A stretch of 25,289 nt of DNA, from IMG/VR virus record IMGVR_UViG_2698536647_000005; one strand, given 5' to 3'. A program made the position numbers and the translations under genes. Under the pieces are notes generated by a model that ran no database searches, was not told where the DNA came from, and saw only the letters and a program-made list of their open reading frames with translations. Shown piece by piece: positions 7,856 through 15,831 of the stretch; position 1 is the stretch's first letter; each line of letters begins with the position of its first letter. This DNA comes from a virus. Lineage: Duplodnaviria; Heunggongvirae; Uroviricota; Caudoviricetes.

Positions 7856-8419
7856 ATGGTAGACAGCATAAATACAGCAATCCGCCTGATGTGTAAGGCA
7901 CACAAGCATGGTCGCTTAGGTATGGCTTCCGATTTAGGGATGACTATCGACCAGTTCCACAACCACCTGTACCAGAAGTGTGGCAGTCGGTTCTTTACCT
8001 TGGCAGAACTGGAACGGATGGAGGACCTGTCTGGTTCTTGTTACTTGGCCGAGTACCAGGCGAACCGAAAAGGGAAATGGCTGGTGGATGTTCCAACTGC
8101 TGAGAGCCTGGATAACGTTGAGCTGTACAGCATTGAGATGAAAGCGGCAGCAGCATCTGGTGAGCTGGCTAATGCCAAGATGGCAGCAGCGGCTGATGGG
8201 GTAATTGATTCATCAGAGCGCAAAACGCTTTCAGAATTATTCAGTAAGAAGCTCCGCCACCAGATTCACGGGTTCCTGGGATTTATGGCGCTTTATGGGG
8301 TTGGTGTTTCAGATCAGGCGATTGACGTATTCGTTTCAACAGGCAGAAAAGGTGACGCCCGCGAGTGTGCAGCTCCGGGCGCCTTGGCGTGTCGTATCAG
8401 TGGAGAAACTAACGCATGA
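7856..8419 (+). CDS. YdaT-like or CII-like early regulator candidate, about 187 aa
   Basis: Internal ATG 7856 with a GAGGGAAA ribosome-binding site. Occupies the position of cII, directly after the Cro/YdaS-like gene. The family assignment is from memory and is weak. Confidence 0.4.
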   Translation: MVDSINTAIRLMCKAHKHGRLGMASDLGMTIDQFHNHLYQKCGSRFFTLAELERMEDLSGSCYLAEYQANRKGKWLVDVPTAESLDNVELYSIEMKAAAASGELANAKMAAAADGVIDSSERKTLSELFSKKLRHQIHGFLGFMALYGVGVSDQAIDVFVSTGRKGDARECAAPGALACRISGETNA

Positions 8420-8754
8420 ACAGTGTAAACCGATTCAGACCAGCTAAGCAATTCAGATGTTTGCCGCTGGTGGGTAAAGATGCCCAGTTCGGCTATGTGG
8501 AAATCATAAATAACGCGGCTGATGGAGGCAACTACCAGCCAGCAGACTTGATGGTAGAAGCATTTGTTCAGATGAACGAGAAGGGGCGCGAGGAATGGCT
8601 GAAGTTAACCGGCGGTTCAGAGATCACTACGGAGTTCCCGTCAGAGTTGTCCGCTGGGAGCCAGATACACAGCGCGTTATATACCTTCGCGAAGGGTACG
8701 ATCATGAGTGCTTCAGCCCTCTTGAACAATTCCAGCGTAAATTTACAGAATTAA
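8416..8754 (+). CDS. Hypothetical protein, 112 aa
   Basis: ORF with ATGA start/stop overlap with the upstream gene and a GGAG about 10 nt upstream. Confidence 0.5.
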   Translation: MNSVNRFRPAKQFRCLPLVGKDAQFGYVEIINNAADGGNYQPADLMVEAFVQMNEKGREEWLKLTGGSEITTEFPSELSAGSQIHSALYTFAKGTIMSASALLNNSSVNLQN

Positions 8755-8763
8755 AGGACGACC

Positions 8764-9618
8764 ATGAGCACTAAATTAACCGGTTACGTATGGGATGCAT
8801 GCGCTTCGTCAGGCATGAAGTTATCCAGCGTTGCCATCATGGCGCGTCTGGCAGACTTCAGCAGTGATGAAGGGGTTAGCTGGCCTTCCATCGCTACCAT
8901 CGCGCGCCAGATTGGTGCTGGTGAGAGCACGGTTCGTACAGCCATATCTCAGCTGGAAAAAGATGGTTGGTTAACCCGCCAGCAGCGCCGTAAAGGCAAC
9001 CGAAATGCATCGAACGTTTACCAGCTCAATGTTGCGAAATTGCAGGCTGCTGCCTTTTCTCACCTGTCAGATTCTGACGCATCAAAATCTGATGCCTCAA
9101 AAACAGACGCGTCAAAATCTGAGGCATCAAAAAACGATGAAAAAGGCGGTTTTCACCCGTCAGAATCTGGGGGGGATCCGTCAGTAAATACAACTACTGA
9201 TCCATCAGTTAAAAAACCTTCTTGTCCGGTTGCGCCGCAACCAGACCCTGAAGTGATGATCACCGATAACGCCATCCTAGTTCTGAATCATCTGAACCTG
9301 GTTAGTGGCTCACGATACCAAAAATCAAAAACTTCTCTGGAAAACATCCGTGCTCGTCTGCGTGAAGGTTACACCGTTAGCGACTTACAGCTGGTGATCG
9401 ACCTTAAGCATGAGCACTGGAACGGCAATGACGTGCAGTACCAGTACATGCGTCCTGAAACGCTCTTCGGTCCGAAAAAATTTGAAGGTTATCTGCAAAG
9501 CGGGATCCGCTGGGACAAGAAGGGGCGGCCACCGCGTGACAGCTGGGGTGAAAAGAAACATGACCCGATGAAGTTCGGTCCGGTTGATAGCAAGATTCCA
9601 GAGGGGTTCAGAGGATGA
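8764..9618 (+). CDS. Replication initiation protein (O-like; N-terminal helix-turn-helix, iteron-encoding linker, conserved phage C-terminal domain), 284 aa
   Basis: AAGGA ribosome-binding site. N-terminal helix-turn-helix (SWPSIATIARQIGAGESTVRTAISQLEKDGWL). The central linker is encoded by four tandem 15-bp repeats. The C-terminal region resembles the conserved C-terminus of phage replication proteins. Position is equivalent to lambda O. Confidence 0.7.
   Translation: MSTKLTGYVWDACASSGMKLSSVAIMARLADFSSDEGVSWPSIATIARQIGAGESTVRTAISQLEKDGWLTRQQRRKGNRNASNVYQLNVAKLQAAAFSHLSDSDASKSDASKTDASKSEASKNDEKGGFHPSESGGDPSVNTTTDPSVKKPSCPVAPQPDPEVMITDNAILVLNHLNLVSGSRYQKSKTSLENIRARLREGYTVSDLQLVIDLKHEHWNGNDVQYQYMRPETLFGPKKFEGYLQSGIRWDKKGRPPRDSWGEKKHDPMKFGPVDSKIPEGFRG
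9074..9133 (+). repeat. Four tandem 15-bp iteron-like repeats inside the replication gene, followed by an A-rich stretch: putative origin of replication
   Basis: Units CTGACGCATCAAAAT, CTGATGCCTCAAAAA, CAGACGCGTCAAAAT and CTGAGGCATCAAAAA, each with a dyad core of the form TGACGCGTCA. Followed by AAAAACGATGAAAAAGG. This mirrors the lambda arrangement of the origin inside gene O. Confidence 0.55.
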
Positions 9619-10946
9619 TGGAAAATAAATACTGCCGTGCACTGGCTGAACTCCGTTCAAAACCAGCACACGAGTTGAAAGAGGTCGGTGATCAATGGCG
9701 CACTCCGGATCTGTTGTTTTGGGGGATCAATGCGATGTTCGGCCCTCTGGTGTTGGACCTTTTTGCCGACGACAGCAACGCGAAGAGCCCAGCATGGTAC
9801 ACGGCTGAAGATAATGCCCTGACGCAGGATTGGTCAGAGCGGCTGGCAGAACTCGGTGGTGCCGGGTTTGGCAACCCGCCTTACAGCCGCTCTCAGTACC
9901 ACGACAAGCAGGCCGTTACCGGAATGACCCACATCATTAACCACGCTATGGCCATGCGAGAAAAGGGTGGTCGGTACGTTTTTCTCATTAAGTCTGCGAC
10001 GAGTGAAACGTGGTGGCCGGAAGAGGCAGATCACGTCACATTCATCCGTGGCCGAATTGGTTTCGATCTTCCTACATGGTTCGTGCCGAAAGACGAAAAG
10101 CAGCAGCCCACCAGCGCATTTTTTGCTGGCGCTATCGTGGTCTTCGACAAAACATGGCGGGGTGAGCGTTTCAGTTACATCAACCGCACCGACCTGGAGG
10201 CCAAAGGCCGTGCTGCGATGTCGCTGGCCCAATTTGCCGTGGGAAGAACGCAAACTGATGCGGCGCCAGAGCTGGACGCTGAGGTAGTGCCGAAGAAATC
10301 AGAGGCAGAACTGCCATTAACCCAAAAAGCCATTCTGGAAACCAGCGGTGTAGAGGCTTGGGCCTGTGTTGTCGCGGCGTTCGGCGAGAAAGACGAGTAC
10401 ACCTTCAGCGAGTCAAAGTTTGGTCATACCTGGGCTGCCGACTCTCTGGAAAACCCTGAATTTACCAATGTTTCACCGCTGACGATCGACAGAGCGAAAA
10501 AGCTGATCAGCGAGAGCATCCTGGTGGGTGTTAATGCATGGCTGGAAACATTGCCCTTTGATAGCGATGACGTGAAACAAGACATGTCAGAGCGGTTACG
10601 CACGGTTGCCGTTGAGTCTGCGAAAGAATACGGCATTAACCACAGTGAATTCATCGCGACCATGGAAAGCCTGGATAAAGCCAAATGGTCAAATATTCGG
10701 GGGATCCGCGCCCATGTCCGTGAGACGCAGGAATCAAAGGACAAGGCGTTAAACGAATCGCGCGTTTGGCCTCTTGAGGTTGGACTGGTGTTTAACCAGA
10801 TTGAAGGGGCTGACGCTCTACCTGTTTCGCAGCAGAACAAGCTGAAAGCCAACATCAATCAACTCTGGCTGGAACGAACGGCCACCAGCGAAATCATTAC
10901 TGCCGCTTCTGAACTTGTTCGCAATATGCGGGGAGAGGCCGCGTGA
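9615..10946 (+). CDS. Phage Dam-type N6-adenine DNA methyltransferase (N-terminal about 190 aa) fused to a roughly 250-aa domain of unknown function, 443 aa
   Basis: DQWRTP and LDLFAD motifs and the catalytic NPPY motif (GFGNPPYS) in the N-terminal half. Single uninterrupted ORF. ATGA overlap with the replication gene. The C-terminal half has no motif I recognise. Confidence 0.75.
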   Translation: MMENKYCRALAELRSKPAHELKEVGDQWRTPDLLFWGINAMFGPLVLDLFADDSNAKSPAWYTAEDNALTQDWSERLAELGGAGFGNPPYSRSQYHDKQAVTGMTHIINHAMAMREKGGRYVFLIKSATSETWWPEEADHVTFIRGRIGFDLPTWFVPKDEKQQPTSAFFAGAIVVFDKTWRGERFSYINRTDLEAKGRAAMSLAQFAVGRTQTDAAPELDAEVVPKKSEAELPLTQKAILETSGVEAWACVVAAFGEKDEYTFSESKFGHTWAADSLENPEFTNVSPLTIDRAKKLISESILVGVNAWLETLPFDSDDVKQDMSERLRTVAVESAKEYGINHSEFIATMESLDKAKWSNIRGIRAHVRETQESKDKALNESRVWPLEVGLVFNQIEGADALPVSQQNKLKANINQLWLERTATSEIITAASELVRNMRGEAA

Positions 10947-11329
10947 AACTGATCCTGCCTTTTCCTCCGAGCGTGAACACTTACTGGCGCGCCCCTAATA
11001 AGGGGCCGCTGGCCGGTCGTCACCTCATTAGCGCTGATGGTCGTAAATACCAGAGCGCTGCCTGCGTGGCGATCATTGAGCAATTACGACGTCTCCCGAA
11101 GCCATCGACTGAACTGGCAGCGGTTGAAATCACTCTGTACCCGCCGGATGCGCGCCGCCGGGATATCGATAATTACAACAAAGCCCTGTTTGACGCGCTG
11201 ACGCATGCGGGTGTCTGGGAAGACGACAGCCAGATTAAGCGCATGCTGGTGGAATGGGGACCCGTAGTGCCGAAAGGTCGGGTAGAGATAACGATCAGCA
11301 GATATGAACCGGCGGGTGCAGCCGCCTGA
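10943..11329 (+). CDS. rusA: RusA Holliday-junction resolvase, 128 aa
   Basis: GTG start overlapping the methyltransferase stop. LPFPPSVNTYW N-terminus and the acidic catalytic region RRDIDNYNKALFDAL ... DDSQI match the RusA family. Confidence 0.85.
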   Translation: MKLILPFPPSVNTYWRAPNKGPLAGRHLISADGRKYQSAACVAIIEQLRRLPKPSTELAAVEITLYPPDARRRDIDNYNKALFDALTHAGVWEDDSQIKRMLVEWGPVVPKGRVEITISRYEPAGAAA

Positions 11330-11342
11330 TATGGAGAAAAGT

Positions 11343-12026
11343 ATGAGCCAATTAGCAACAACAGCATTAACCATGTCCAGCAGCGATATTGCTGAGCTGG
11401 TGGAATCACGACATGACCATGTTAAACGGTCCATTGAACGCCTGGCAGAGCGCGGTGTTATTGAACTCCCCCCAATGGGGGAAGTTAAAAATCACCTCAA
11501 TCAGTCGGTATCGGTTTATCTGATAGGGAAGCGGGACAGTTATATCGTTGTCGCGCAGCTGTCGCCGGAGTTTACCGCGCGTCTGGTTGATCGCTGGCAG
11601 GAGCTTGAGCAGGCACAGCAGCAGACGATTCCTCAATCATTCTCTGAAGCCCTACGTCTTGCAGCTGACCTTGCAGAACAAAAACAACAGTTGACTAACG
11701 AACTGGCTGCCGCTGCGCCGAAGGTAGCGTTTGTTGATCGGTACTGTACAGCCAGTGGGTCAATGTCATTCCGCCAGGTGGCAAAACTGCTTAAGGCCAA
11801 AGAGCCAGATCTGCGGTTATTCCTCCTTGAGAACGACATCATGTATCGCCTTGGCGGAACGATGACCCCACGGCATCAGCATATTGATGCGGGCCGTTTT
11901 GAAATGAAAACCGGCACATCCGTAACCTCAAATCATGCATTCAGCCAGGCACGTTTCACGGCGAAAGGCGTACGCTGGATTGGTGGACTGTGGGCAGAAC
12001 ACATTGCCAGGGGGCAGGTCGCGTGA
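11343..12026 (+). CDS. Rha-family regulatory protein / antirepressor with a KilA-C-like C-terminal domain, about 227 aa
   Basis: GGAGA ribosome-binding site before ATG 11343. N-terminal Rha-like region (SSDIAELVESRHDHVKRSIERLAERGVIE) and a C-terminal KilAC-like region (AFVDRYCTASGSMSFRQVAKLLK ... DIMYRLGG). Confidence 0.6.
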   Translation: MSQLATTALTMSSSDIAELVESRHDHVKRSIERLAERGVIELPPMGEVKNHLNQSVSVYLIGKRDSYIVVAQLSPEFTARLVDRWQELEQAQQQTIPQSFSEALRLAADLAEQKQQLTNELAAAAPKVAFVDRYCTASGSMSFRQVAKLLKAKEPDLRLFLLENDIMYRLGGTMTPRHQHIDAGRFEMKTGTSVTSNHAFSQARFTAKGVRWIGGLWAEHIARGQVA

Positions 12027-13018
12027 GAGCTCTGCTTACCCCCGAGATCGCCCATCGTATGGGGATTGTGCTGTTCCGTCCCGGTACGGAACTGATGCAC
12101 CTCTTCATGCGTGGTCGCGTTCTGCTCGAGCCTGAACCAGAAGAAATGGCGTCATTCAGTACCGGGGCTGTTCCGGCAGCCATTCAGCCGCTAGCTGATG
12201 ATCCGGTAATGCGTCAGGTCTTCGAGAATGAGAGGGTTATTCAGCGTGCCGGTGGGCTTCCTTCCCTTGAGCAATGGTTGAGTAATCGGTTTGAATGCCA
12301 GTGGCCACATTCAACGTGGCACGACAAGAACTTCACAACAATGCGGCACCCACCAGGAAGTATTCGCCTGTGCTGGCATTGCGATCACACTTTGTCGGGG
12401 CAGCATACCGAACAGCTTGCAGGTATAGCGGCCGGAAACCTGGTATCCTGGATTCTGGAAGTCATTCGGCGTGATTCTGGTTTTCCCGAGTCGCATATCC
12501 TGACGCTTCCTGAACTGTGCTGGTGGATGGTCAGAAACGACCTGGCTGATGTTATTCCGGAAAGCGTTGCGCACAAAGGGTTGCGCCTTCCGGATGAGAA
12601 GATCCGTTCTGTCATGAGGGAAAGCGACATAGTGCCTTCCTCGTCAGCAACCAGACTCGTGCAGGAGAAGGCGAAGAAGATCCTCACGCTCTCTGTTGAT
12701 CCGGAGTCGCCAGAGTCTTTTATGCTCAGGCCAAAACGTCGCCGCTGGATAAATGAGACGTACACCCGCTGGGTTAAAACACAACCCTGTGAGTGTTGCA
12801 GACGGCCAGCAGATGATCCGCACCATATCGTAGGGCACGGTATGGGTGGTACAGCAACAAAAGCCCATGACCTCTTCGTGATCCCTCTGTGCAGAGAGTG
12901 CCACGACGAGTTACACGCCGATGTACCAGCATTCGAGCAGAAGCATGGTACGCAGCTTGAGCTGCTACTGCGTTTTATTGATCGAGCACTGGCGATCGGC
13001 GTAATTGCGACAGCTTAA
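12023..13018 (+). CDS. Nin-region DUF968-like protein with an HNH-like Cys/His motif at the C-terminus (putative nuclease)
   Basis: GTG at 12023 overlaps the upstream stop. C-terminal CECC ... HHIVGHG ... CRECHDELH resembles a zinc-bound HNH fold. The exact start is uncertain: in-frame ATG codons lie at 12059 and further downstream. Confidence 0.5.
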   Translation: MRALLTPEIAHRMGIVLFRPGTELMHLFMRGRVLLEPEPEEMASFSTGAVPAAIQPLADDPVMRQVFENERVIQRAGGLPSLEQWLSNRFECQWPHSTWHDKNFTTMRHPPGSIRLCWHCDHTLSGQHTEQLAGIAAGNLVSWILEVIRRDSGFPESHILTLPELCWWMVRNDLADVIPESVAHKGLRLPDEKIRSVMRESDIVPSSSATRLVQEKAKKILTLSVDPESPESFMLRPKRRRWINETYTRWVKTQPCECCRRPADDPHHIVGHGMGGTATKAHDLFVIPLCRECHDELHADVPAFEQKHGTQLELLLRFIDRALAIGVIATA

Positions 13019-13034
13019 GAAGTATGGAGACCGT

Positions 13035-13127
13035 ATGAATCTGGACAATGTTTTAAAGTTTTTTGCGCCTAAAGGCATGCACATCTCAGATACCAGCAGA
13101 GCGACAGCAATCTTCCTGCCTCAATGA
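13035..13127 (+). pseudogene. 30-codon ORF whose product resembles the N-terminus of the downstream Q-like protein; likely a recombination remnant
   Basis: My translation MNLDNVLKFFAPKGMHISDTS compared with MKLEASLKHFSPQGMHISDDV at 13307 (same strand, about 270 bp apart). Confidence 0.3.
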
Positions 13128-13303
13128 TTCGCTTGTTGAAGCAACGAGAGGGCGAAGGGTGGATCGGTGACATCGGAGCTAATTTCGACTCTCGCTCTCA
13201 CCAGTTCCTGGAAGGCGAGAAAAAACCATTTAACTACCTGGTCGTTAAGCCGCAAAGCGAGTTTGATCTCGAGTGGGAAGCCAGCAACGTAACGAGGGTT
13301 TGA
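13124..13303 (+). CDS. Small hypothetical nin-region protein, 59 aa (below the track's length cutoff)
   Basis: ATG at 13124 overlaps the stop of the preceding short ORF (ATGA). My translation: MIRLLKQREGEGWIGDIGANFDSRSHQFLEGEKKPFNYLVVKPQSEFDLEWEASNVTRV. Confidence 0.35.
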   Translation: MIRLLKQREGEGWIGDIGANFDSRSHQFLEGEKKPFNYLVVKPQSEFDLEWEASNVTRV

Positions 13304-13306
13304 GAT

Positions 13307-14143
13307 ATGAAACTTGAAGCTTCACTAAAACACTTTAGCCCTCAGGGTATGCACATCAGCGACGACGTGAAAGGAACCTCTCCGGACCGCCTTACAGGAA
13401 CAGATGTAATGGCGGCAATTGGCACCACCAGCAGCCGTGCGCGCTTCGGACTGGCGGCGTTCTTCGGTAAAGCGGGAATCAGCAAAACGGATGAACAGCT
13501 CGCAGTTCAGGCGCTGGCGCGATATGCGATGGATGTCGCACCGAAGAATGTTCGCAAAGCAGCTGGTGGGCAGTTCGGATGGTGCATGCAGATGTTGGCA
13601 CAATTTGCCTTTGCTGATTATTCACGTTCGGCGGCTACAAGCGTGACGTGTCACAGCTGCAGTGGTACCGGACGAACAACCCGCGAACAGATTACCCGCA
13701 AGGTTTCGTACCCATGGGGTAAAGCTCCATACTGGGCCTGCCGCTCTCGTGCTGTTCGACCGTCTGACTGGGAGCAGTGGATGGAGGTAACAGAGGTTGT
13801 ACCGGCGGTCTGTGATGCTTGCGAAGGCAAGGGAACGATCAGCGCCCGTTGTCGTTGCGGCGGTAAAGGCGAGGTTCTAGACCGCAAGGCCACAAGCGAG
13901 CGCGGCGCGCCGGTGTTTAAAACCTGCGAGCGCTGCAGCGGAAATGGATTTTCTGCGGTGCCGTCTACCGCAGCCTATAAAGTGATACTGAAGCGCGTTC
14001 CGGATCTGCACGTCAGAACATGGACTCGCAACTGGAAACCGTTTCTTGAGGCGCTGGTAAGCATTTGTCAGCAGGAGGAGGGAAACGCCGCAAGAGAATT
14101 TCAATCTGCAACCAGTTTAGGCGAAGAAGGTGACGAAATTTAG
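13307..14143 (+). CDS. Putative late-gene antiterminator (Q-like), Cys-rich with DnaJ-type CxxCxGxG repeats, 278 aa
   Basis: Last gene before a promoter-plus-terminator unit and the lysis cassette, which is the Q position. Three exact CxxCxGxG repeats (CHSCSGTG, CDACEGKG, CERCSGNG) and one variant (CRCGGKG). The functional call rests on position only. Confidence 0.45.
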   Translation: MKLEASLKHFSPQGMHISDDVKGTSPDRLTGTDVMAAIGTTSSRARFGLAAFFGKAGISKTDEQLAVQALARYAMDVAPKNVRKAAGGQFGWCMQMLAQFAFADYSRSAATSVTCHSCSGTGRTTREQITRKVSYPWGKAPYWACRSRAVRPSDWEQWMEVTEVVPAVCDACEGKGTISARCRCGGKGEVLDRKATSERGAPVFKTCERCSGNGFSAVPSTAAYKVILKRVPDLHVRTWTRNWKPFLEALVSICQQEEGNAAREFQSATSLGEEGDEI

Positions 14144-14162
14144 CATTATTACGACATAAGGC

Positions 14163-14192
14163 TTGATTTTGTCCGAAGTTGTCGTGTATGCT
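14163..14192 (+). promoter_or_regulatory. Putative late promoter (pR'-like)
   Basis: TTGATT (14163-14168), 18-nt spacer, TATGCT (14187-14192), about 40 nt upstream of a strong terminator. Would give a transcript of roughly 50-60 nt, analogous to lambda 6S RNA. Confidence 0.35.
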
Positions 14193-14232
14193 TCTAATCA
14201 TGCGGAGTAACGCCTGAAAGATTTAAACAATA

Positions 14233-14254
14233 AGCCCCTTGCGGGGCTTTTTTA
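14233..14254 (+). terminator. Intrinsic terminator (tR'-like), possibly bidirectional
   Basis: Stem AGCCCC, loop TTGC, stem GGGGCT, then TTTTTT. Abuts the stop codon of the convergent minus-strand gene 14252-15202. Confidence 0.7.
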
Positions 14255-15202
14255 TGGCAGCGAGTTAACGAAAGAACTGAAAAGGGCCTTATCTTTATTG
14301 CTAATTGATTTTTTCAAATGTAGTTGATGATTTAAAGGTTTAAAGTTTTCCTTTGTGAGATATATACATGCTTTCTCAAAACGATCCTGAAGGAATTGAA
14401 ATCTTTCATTCAGCCTGGAAACTTTTAATCCTAATGACATGACCTTCTTCTCAGGAATATCGTCAGGATTGCAATTATTGAGTTCTTCCAGCACAAGGCG
14501 AATATCTCTTTCGAAGATTAGCGCTATGTTATAATCGTTGAGGAGGCATTCAGGATTACGAACAATGCCAATTACTTCGTCGATGAATTGTGGTTTTACA
14601 TTATCCTCAGCATTTTCATCTTCGTTATCGGAAGGTTTTTGAGACATAACATTCGACAACTGCATTTCTTCCTTGGTTTTCCTTCTGGGAAGTAAAACTT
14701 TTCCATCTCCTAAAGCAGCCATACGTTTCAAAGCTTGACTCCCGGCTCGGCCAACTACTTTAGAATCTCTTAAATCTAAAATTTTATGTGCGACCCATTC
14801 TAATGATGGTTCACTGGCTTCGATTTTGGCTTTTGCTTGGTAATGGAGAAAAATATTTTTCTTGGCTTCCTTGAGGGCTGTTAGATATCTGTGGAAATTT
14901 GCCTTTTTCTCGAGGTCAGTGGCTAGGTTTTCAAATGCTATACCGAAGACTTTTGTACCGCAAACGTGACCCAGGTTCGTCTCCAGACCATCCTCAGTAA
15001 GAACAAGAAACCCTTTTTTATGGCCTGTTCGACAGCTCGACTTGCCACACGGGATTTCTTCCGGGAGGTCATCATAATAACCAAAAACATCGGATAATTG
15101 TTGATCGGTCAGTTCCAGCCTGGAATGATAGCTTTCCCGAGCTTGAATTTCTGTCCAGTCATTAATGCGATCAAAGCTATTGCCGTTTTTAATAAAAATC
15201 AT
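14252..15202 (-). CDS. Orphan hypothetical protein, 316 aa, low GC, antisense to the late operon (cargo gene)
   Basis: Uninterrupted 951-nt ORF with an AAGGGA ribosome-binding site. Visibly more AT-rich than flanking phage DNA (my estimate; not computed). Opposite orientation to all neighbours. Contains a C-x4-C ... H ... H-x-C cluster but no motif I recognise. Confidence 0.6.
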   Translation of the reverse strand: MIFIKNGNSFDRINDWTEIQARESYHSRLELTDQQLSDVFGYYDDLPEEIPCGKSSCRTGHKKGFLVLTEDGLETNLGHVCGTKVFGIAFENLATDLEKKANFHRYLTALKEAKKNIFLHYQAKAKIEASEPSLEWVAHKILDLRDSKVVGRAGSQALKRMAALGDGKVLLPRRKTKEEMQLSNVMSQKPSDNEDENAEDNVKPQFIDEVIGIVRNPECLLNDYNIALIFERDIRLVLEELNNCNPDDIPEKKVMSLGLKVSRLNERFQFLQDRFEKACIYLTKENFKPLNHQLHLKKSISNKDKALFSSFVNSLP

Positions 15203-15317
15203 ATCTTCCCTTGCTCTGGTTAGATTGAAAGCACTGCCGCTTGATATTTAACCATTTCCCTGATTGTTTTTCATCATAAAACCATATTATTGCAAGGGTA
15301 GTTTTACCTATGTATCT

Positions 15318-15394
15318 TCTTGCTCCCGGCCCTTTAGCTCAGTTGGTTAGAGCGTGCGACTCATAATCGCCCGGTCGCTGGTTCAAGTCCAGCA
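15318..15394 (+). tRNA. tRNA with CAU anticodon, ileX-like (tRNA-Ile2; tRNA-Met not excluded)
   Basis: Cloverleaf folded by hand: acceptor stem GGCCCTT/AAGGGCC, D-arm GCTC..GAGC, anticodon loop CTCATAA, T-arm GCTGG TTCAAGT CCAGC, 3' CCA. Close to E. coli ileX as recalled from memory. Confidence 0.8.
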
Positions 15395-15396
15395 AG

Positions 15397-15470
15397 GGCC
15401 ACCAGACCGCCACTAGCTCATCGGGAAGAGCGGCAACCCAGGTGTTGTGGTACGGGGTTCGAGGCTCCGG
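15397..15470 (+). tRNA. tRNA-like element with a non-canonical anticodon loop (possible pseudo-tRNA)
   Basis: Perfect acceptor stem CCGCCAC/GTGGCGG with discriminator and CCA, a D-arm GCTC-ATCGGGAA-GAGC and a T-arm CGGGG-TTCGAGG-CTCCG. The anticodon arm folds only as stem GCAAC/GTTGT with a 6-nt loop CCAGGT, or as a 4-bp stem with an 8-nt loop; no 7-nt loop is possible. Confidence 0.5.
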
Positions 15471-15482
15471 TGGCGGACCACT

Positions 15483-15558
<76 letters not shown>

Positions 15559-15561
15559 TAT

Positions 15562-15636
<75 letters not shown>

Positions 15637-15831
15637 GTTTAAGCTTTTCGGTCTGCGATGATGGGGTCCCCGGAGTGACTGAAAAGCGACCTAGTTTTGA
15701 ATGGGCGCTGCTTTTTGCAAAATTGCTGTGTGAAAATGCTGACCTTTGGGTTCAGCGCTCATCCAAAAGCATCTCGTTAAAATCCAGTTAACCTCGGGTG
15801 GTTTGTTGGGTGAGGTGCCTCAAATTCAAAT

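Follow-up and report, generated by a model that had tools for sequence, protein, structure and literature searches.

In lambdoid phages, gene fragments left at abrupt mosaic borders where homology is absent or minimal are the classic hallmark of illegitimate recombination, and from HK97 and HK022 Juhala, Hendrix and colleagues reportedly put forward, in 2000, an illegitimate-recombination model of lambdoid mosaicism with gene remnants at the "novel joints". Illegitimate recombination is the prevalent hypothesis for mosaic borders, and it has been estimated that illegitimate and homeologous recombination are about equal contributors to phage mosaicism (Martinsohn, Radman & Petit 2008, PMC2327257). 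A search of the literature for truncated-Q scars found no specific report. The window analyzed here, that is, the whole stretch of 25,289 nucleotides from a virus of the Caudoviricetes (IMG/VR record IMGVR_UViG_2698536647_000005), carries at positions 13035-13306 two short ORFs between a DUF968 gene and an intact antiterminator gene of the lambda Q family (hereafter Q_B), and this segment is a scar of two gene relics, one from the 5' end of another Q gene (Q_A) and the other from the 3' end of a primase-helicase gene. We hold, with a probability of roughly 80%, that the scar is non-functional and was left by a deletion in a prophage that carried both Q genes.

Two gene relics in front of Q_B

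Q_B (13307..14143, plus strand; 278 aa), with a GAGG at 13294-13297, is the only complete Q in the window. It matches Pfam PF03589 with E = 6e-54 and 180.6 bits (gathering threshold, 26.7), lambda Q in PDB 7UBM with E = 3e-39, and phrog_127 with E = 4e-101, and the exact protein is found on 164 contigs. The intact part of the early (nin-like) operon ends on the left flank with the DUF968 gene (11990..13018, plus strand; PF06147, E = 6e-78), whose homologue in Escherichia coli VREC0761 is directly followed in RefSeq by Q_A, the 276-aa antitermination protein WP_001046976.1. Q_A lies directly 3' of the same DUF968 gene in E. coli MB06232 as well, and the VREC0761 locus (hereafter L006) was used as the reference for the joint described below.

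The first of the two ORFs (13035-13127, plus strand) has 30 codons, from an ATG at 13035 to a TGA stop at 13125-13127. Its first 25 codons, MNLDNVLKFFAPKGMHISDTSRATA (13035..13110), share 100% DNA identity (L006 491-566) with codons 1-25 of Q_A, the RefSeq start of which at L006 491 corresponds to window 13035, and by this identity the stub descends from a Q gene. The five remaining codons, IFLPQ, are read out of frame from the primase relic before the stop. The Shine-Dalgarno sequence of the lost Q_A gene, GGAG, can be read at 13026..13029 (plus strand), 5 nt 5' of the stub ATG. What is left comprises 25 of ~276 residues and nothing of the Antiterm domain PF03589, the Zn-binding and DNA/RNAP-binding body of the protein, so that the product, 30 aa in all, cannot be an antiterminator.

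The stub also resembles the start of Q_B. Residues 1-25 of the stub and of Q_B (MKLEASLKHFSPQGMHISDDVKGTS) are identical in register at 13 of 25 positions, including 12 of 21 within the 21-residue stretch quoted in the first-pass annotation of this DNA, and their ungapped BLOSUM62 score of 68 compares with 26 for the best other 25-mer in the six-frame translation of the window and with a maximum of 36 over 40 shuffled windows; the likeness is real and far above chance. In addition, the stub matches the "Q-like" profile phrog_127 (residues 1-25 on profile positions 1-25 of 253), and residues 1-25 of lambda Q align with its N-terminal segment. At the DNA level, on the other hand, the two 5' ends (aligned with MAFFT) are identical in register at 35 of 63 positions (~56%), with a common 12-nt block (ATGCACATC plus flanking bases), a degree of identity that argues for an old allelic relation and not for a recent duplication of the resident Q_B 5' end. 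Nor is the similarity limited to the start context: full-length Q_A is 46% identical to Q_B over 269 aa (E = 1e-84), both belong to PF03589, and the best-scoring PF03589 stretch covers residues 175-262 in each. The similar N-termini are simply the conserved start of one protein family. The first-pass annotation, which placed both ORFs correctly, was thus right to see in the first a relic of another antiterminator allele, whereas its description of the relic as a duplicated N-terminus of the resident Q does not fit a stub that is fully identical to Q_A and far less so to Q_B.

The second ORF (59 aa; 13124-13303, plus strand) starts at an internal Met of a longer frame. This frame, a primase-helicase gene of the Toprim/AAA (DnaB-like) type reduced to its 64 final codons and the stop (13108..13303, plus strand), is identical from 13109 onward at 62 of 64 amino acids (97%) to residues 560-623 of the primase/helicase XNS37645.1 of Escherichia phage SaltyDalty (E = 2e-42), and it also matches phrog_23248, "DNA primase". 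The full SaltyDalty protein has 623 aa, with Toprim_2 at residues 206-293 and AAA_25 at residues 353-505; the Toprim and AAA_25/DnaB_C domains are absent from 13108-13303, where just residues 560-623 are kept. In SaltyDalty the primase stop and the Q start are separated by 3 nt, the same spacing as between the 59-aa ORF and Q_B. Publicly, the exact 59-aa sequence goes under the name "replication protein", and close relatives in its cluster are called "twinkle protein" and "bifunctional DNA primase/helicase, partial". The 59-aa ORF is the last 59 of the 64 retained codons and a second relic, not a gene; the earlier proposal that it may be incoming cargo gives way to that of a gene tail. Both ORFs belong marked as pseudogene fragments in annotation, and not as hypothetical proteins or cargo.

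Two PHROG families of ~58 aa and "unknown function" also match here: phrog_21867 (matching window 13307-13474) covers the Q N-terminus only, and phrog_32971 (matching window 13124-13300) covers the primase C-terminal tail only, and both seem to have been assembled from relic ORFs and not from real proteins.

The joint and the tandem-Q composites

When the window, L006 536-596, and L006 3473-3533 are brought into one three-way alignment, the joint falls at 13108..13110. Window 12545-13110 corresponds to L006 1-566 and window 13108-14300 to L006 3501-4693, each at 99.8% identity, and across the CAA that is common to both parents at 13108-13110 the identity switches from the left to the right one. 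The window equals the VREC0761 arrangement minus 2,934 bp (L006 567-3500) with this 3-nt overlap: the flanks are collinear with a longer relative, the middle is absent, and few bases are shared, as in a microhomology deletion joint. Codon 25 of Q_A is thereby connected to codon 560 of the primase-helicase, 199 nt 5' of Q_B. Outside the gap, the window and VREC0761 differ at 2 positions in ~2.2 kb on the left (~10950-13110) and at 2 in ~3.9 kb on the right. Q_A codons 26-276 and a HemY_N-like ORF lie in the missing segment, as do the genes for two holins and the GH19 endolysin, the stub of an Rz-like spanin (its first ~38 codons, in frame with the primase tail), and 54 nt of primase relic. Also lost is a pair of sites found 3' of Q_A in the undeleted relatives, one promoter-like (L006 1337-1365) and the other terminator-like (L006 1409-1428), so that no orphan Q_A target is left. 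An Rfam search of 12800-15800 returned nothing within the scar.

Two other leads on the joint and its left parent were rejected. Several genomes start matching at 13108, which could make this position a recurrent module boundary, but primase homology continues upstream in E. coli AW1.7 (relic of 669 nt) and VREC0761 (250 nt), and 13108 is therefore just the window's own breakpoint. The prophage of Nissle 1917 was considered as the Q_A donor; its DUF968 homology stops at 13029 and is followed by an unrelated Q allele of 229 aa.

Both Q genes stand in tandem in the complete E. coli genomes VREC0761 and MB06232, the latter sharing with VREC0761 the undeleted gene order as well as identical Q_A and lysis-cassette proteins, and FAM21845 is a composite of the same type with another first Q. 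The exact Q_A allele, the donor for which comparison with related prophages had been suggested, occurs in 2 of 5,426 complete E. coli genomes, both of them tandem-Q composites, and a "pure" Q_A parent was not found in this set. In VREC0761, FAM21845, and MB06232, primase homology starts at L006 3447, 54 nt upstream of its start in the window (L006 3501); since the composites keep 54 nt more of the primase gene, the window type cannot be their ancestor. The VREC0761 prophage is collinear with the window from the integrase to the head genes except for the immunity region and the Dam allele, and on account of these two differences VREC0761 itself should be taken as a relative and not as the direct ancestor of the window. 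In one further contig (L014) the scar is found together with a Dam allele of the VREC0761 type, a combination that a direct deletion derivative should show.

An older joint can be seen within the composites. In VREC0761 (L006 3346-3696), and also in FAM21845 and MB06232, an annotated 116-aa "hypothetical protein" is an in-frame fusion, the first ~38 residues of which are those of an Rz-like spanin (phrog_1026) and the remainder those of the primase tail (phrog_23248). This fusion marks a joint at approximately L006 3447-3457, the origin of the composite with tandem Q genes and two lysis cassettes.

These data suggest a probable history in two steps, an illegitimate join followed by a microhomology deletion that trimmed the redundant first module. 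In the first step, a prophage with the order DUF968-Q_A-holin-holin-GH19-Rz would have recombined illegitimately and out of register with a phage of the order primase-Q_B-tRNA-lysis-head, the breaks falling inside Rz and at a point that left the primase gene with its final 250 nt, and the product would be the composite, doubled for Q and for the lysis cassette, that survives in VREC0761, MB06232, and FAM21845. In the second step, a 2,934-bp microhomology-mediated deletion between two CAA triplets, by slippage or end-joining, would have yielded a streamlined prophage with a single Q, Q_B, in the customary position behind the nin-like genes. This direction and order of events is favored by the longer form having intact genes and the longer primase relic, together with the missing "pure" Q_A parent. 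The first-pass annotation had taken a direct swap of alleles as the simplest route; the net outcome, Q_B where Q_A stood, and the illegitimate nature of the mosaic joint, with its 3-nt microhomology, agree with our reading, whereas a deletion in a prophage with tandem Q genes and two lysis cassettes fits better than a swap.

The same sequence would result exactly if a DUF968-Q_A phage, broken at Q_A codon 25, and a phage with the primase-Q_B module intact, broken at primase codon 560, had been fused in a single event, the composites having arisen independently from the same two parental types. Such intact modules do exist in phages and prophages (SaltyDalty, MS 115-1), and AW1.7 offers a case in which Q_B and a primase relic came independently to stand behind a different truncated Q, so that inter-phage joints of this kind recur. 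Our comparison of 13108-14252 across 16 relatives revealed no site uniquely common to the window and the composites, and no diagnostic SNP therefore ties the two together; moreover, all carriers, even those whose primase gene is intact or truncated in another way, agree in the Q_B module at 99.4-99.8% identity, and for this reason identity of the right flank alone does not discriminate. However, this one-step route needs two independent and rare inter-molecular illegitimate events between the same two lineages, and it has to accommodate an exact Q_A allele confined to composites among the complete E. coli genomes, a primase relic in the window that is a strict subset of the composite's, and two arms near-identical to the composite over ~6 kb (4 mismatches) within a wholly collinear prophage. 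We consider it improbable, though the best placed of the alternatives.

Possible expression and roles, and spread of the scar

No terminator-like site is predicted on the plus strand from 12900 to the end of Q_B, and from DUF968 to the end of Q_B transcription is presumably continuous with the early operon, Q_B being read in the former place of Q_A. Because the Shine-Dalgarno and ATG of Q_A are intact, the 30-aa stub is probably translated from this GGAG-ATG, and ribosomes may pass from the stub over the point where its TGA overlaps the ATG of the 59-aa ORF (ATGA), into the primase-relic frame and on to Q_B, preserving the native primase-to-Q_B coupling. Functional domains are missing from both peptides, the 59-aa ORF lacks its own Shine-Dalgarno sequence, and we infer that neither has a function of its own.

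It is very unlikely, in our judgment, that the stub, the 59-aa ORF, or both have been kept for a function, whether as leader ORFs coupling Q_B translation or as a peptide modulating Q or RNA polymerase. The intact start signals of the stub and its ATGA overlap would suit such a role, as would the 3-nt gap between the relic ORF and Q_B, which the native primase-Q_B order also has, the identity of the scar in at least 10 fetched contigs with several mosaic backgrounds, and the existence of ~58-aa PHROG families that match the Q N-terminus alone and the primase tail alone. This identity, however, reflects recent common descent and provides no substitutions with which to test selection, and the sole substitution fixed among the scar carriers, G to T at 13245, is non-synonymous, replacing Gly by Val in the relic frame. 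The lack of a Shine-Dalgarno for the 59-aa ORF and the loss of the whole PF03589 domain from the stub also speak against a function, and relatives with an intact primase or with relics of other lengths (669 and 250 nt) have the same Q_B context without the stub. To a more specific version, in which the relic ORFs are kept as a translational relay (GGAG-ATG of Q_A, re-initiation at ATGA, then Q_B) or the 25-residue peptide hinders Q loading, we give slightly less credence still; if the relay were true, a leader built from two dead genes would govern the late-gene switch in its dosage and timing. Least credible is the first-pass version, in which short homology of the Q 5' ends drove an allele replacement with the 59-aa ORF as cargo: the Q_A and Q_B N-termini are truly homologous and have the 12-nt block in common, but the three-way junction alignment contradicts it, with a joint that runs from Q_A codon 25 to primase codon 560, well 5' of Q_B, on just 3 shared nt, and with a supposed cargo that starts at an internal Met of a gene whose full-length homologue has 623 aa.

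Downstream of the scar, a hairpin with a T run (14232..14249, plus strand), terminator-like on both strands, lies 89 nt 3' of Q_B as a candidate for the tR' of a late promoter region belonging to Q_B itself, in analogy to the promoter-like and terminator-like pair 3' of Q_A; a consensus scan for sigma-70-like promoters found none between 12900 and 14400, and the Q_B late promoter was not located. Close by, position 14225 is A in the window and C in all 11 close relatives compared at this site. Between the Q_B terminator and the tRNA cluster, the classic position of a "moron", the minus strand carries a 316-aa gene (14252-15202; phrog_7003, no Pfam match) that opposes the late operon and is replaced in relatives (contig L007 and AW1.7) by a 306-aa or shorter variant. 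Farther on, at 15407-15480, ARAGORN reports a "tRNA-???" with a 2-base anticodon between tRNA-Met/Ile(CAT) and tRNA-Thr(TGT); this element has no Rfam tRNA model match at E <= 1 and no RefSeq annotation in relatives, and is probably a degenerate tRNA.

The scar itself is present in at least 24 public contigs with several mosaic backgrounds. It was located only by way of its exact 59-aa product, among the assemblies of ENA, Logan, and NCBI; in the assembly collection 35 blocks are indexed for this product, from which 24 contigs were read. The product is recorded on 19 contigs (GCY95919.1), one of them 804 kb long, and NCBI gives E. coli as its source. A 34-nt junction-spanning query had no exact match in one-genome-per-species GTDB, IMG/VR viral, or JGI metagenome contigs. 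All 10 scar contigs that were fetched have an identical junction and are identical over the 331 bases of 13000-13330, which argues for a single event. Beyond these bases the carriers differ: two of them (L007 and L010) diverge inside and 3' of Q_B and have another lysis cassette, a third (L011) is recombinant within Q_B at ~13400-13670, and in L014 the Dam region is 9% diverged. Position 13245 is T in all scar carriers and G in every non-scar relative covering the site (the composites, AW1.7, and SaltyDalty), and the resulting Gly-to-Val change in the primase frame is what neutral drift in the tail of a dead gene could produce. The unique junction can be used as a lineage marker for a prophage segment moving through mosaic backgrounds.

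Further mosaic borders lie to the left of DUF968. By megablast, the immunity region (window 5989-9603) finds no counterpart in the VREC0761 prophage, which is near-identical elsewhere, the Dam methyltransferase allele that follows (9603-10950) is ~70-80% identical to that of VREC0761, and near-identity resumes sharply at ~10950, so that the edges of the immunity and Dam regions are themselves mosaic borders.

The locus among known lambdoid systems

With respect to the lambda Q family (PF03589; PDB 4MO1 and 7UBM), Q_A and Q_B are full-length members and the stub has the conserved N-terminal segment. Unlike lambda Q, Q_B carries an insert of ~53 aa at residues 126-178 (window 13682-13840) with extra CxxC..G.G motifs, and Q_A likewise; Pfam finds two PF03589 stretches and sub-threshold DnaJ_CXXCXGXG matches, and the insert may be a duplicated zinc-binding element.

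The closest counterpart of the scar is found in E. coli AW1.7 (NZ_CP073624.1; locus L005, 2602-3696), where the same Q_B (99.7%) is preceded by a primase/ATPase relic and, further 5', by the 5' part of another Q gene; RefSeq flags the truncated Q and the AAA ATPase there as partial pseudogenes (KD735_RS07335 and KD735_RS07340). In contrast to the window, however, AW1.7 carries a third Q allele (MNLENTVKYHF...), of which 124 codons are retained against 25, its ATPase relic measures 669 nt against 199 nt, and its upstream genes are NinB, NinE, RusA, and YlcG. The AW1.7 scar is an independent event.

From a broader point of view, the scar opens no new biology and answers no long-standing question; it is a well-resolved further case of the known lambdoid illegitimate-recombination joints. 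As in other lambdoid novel joints, identity at the joint in the window jumps from ~100% to no homology, inside genes and with 3 nt shared, and, again as in these systems, an out-of-register join duplicates functions that are later trimmed while homologous recombination reshuffles the neighboring modules. The locus thus illustrates lambdoid mosaicism in two steps, a join that creates redundancy and a microhomology deletion that trims it, with both stages in public genomes. It differs from the described joints in nothing of kind, but here the intermediate and the trimmed product have both been sequenced, and because the tandem-Q intermediate and its trimmed product are both available, the deletion can be reconstructed to the base.
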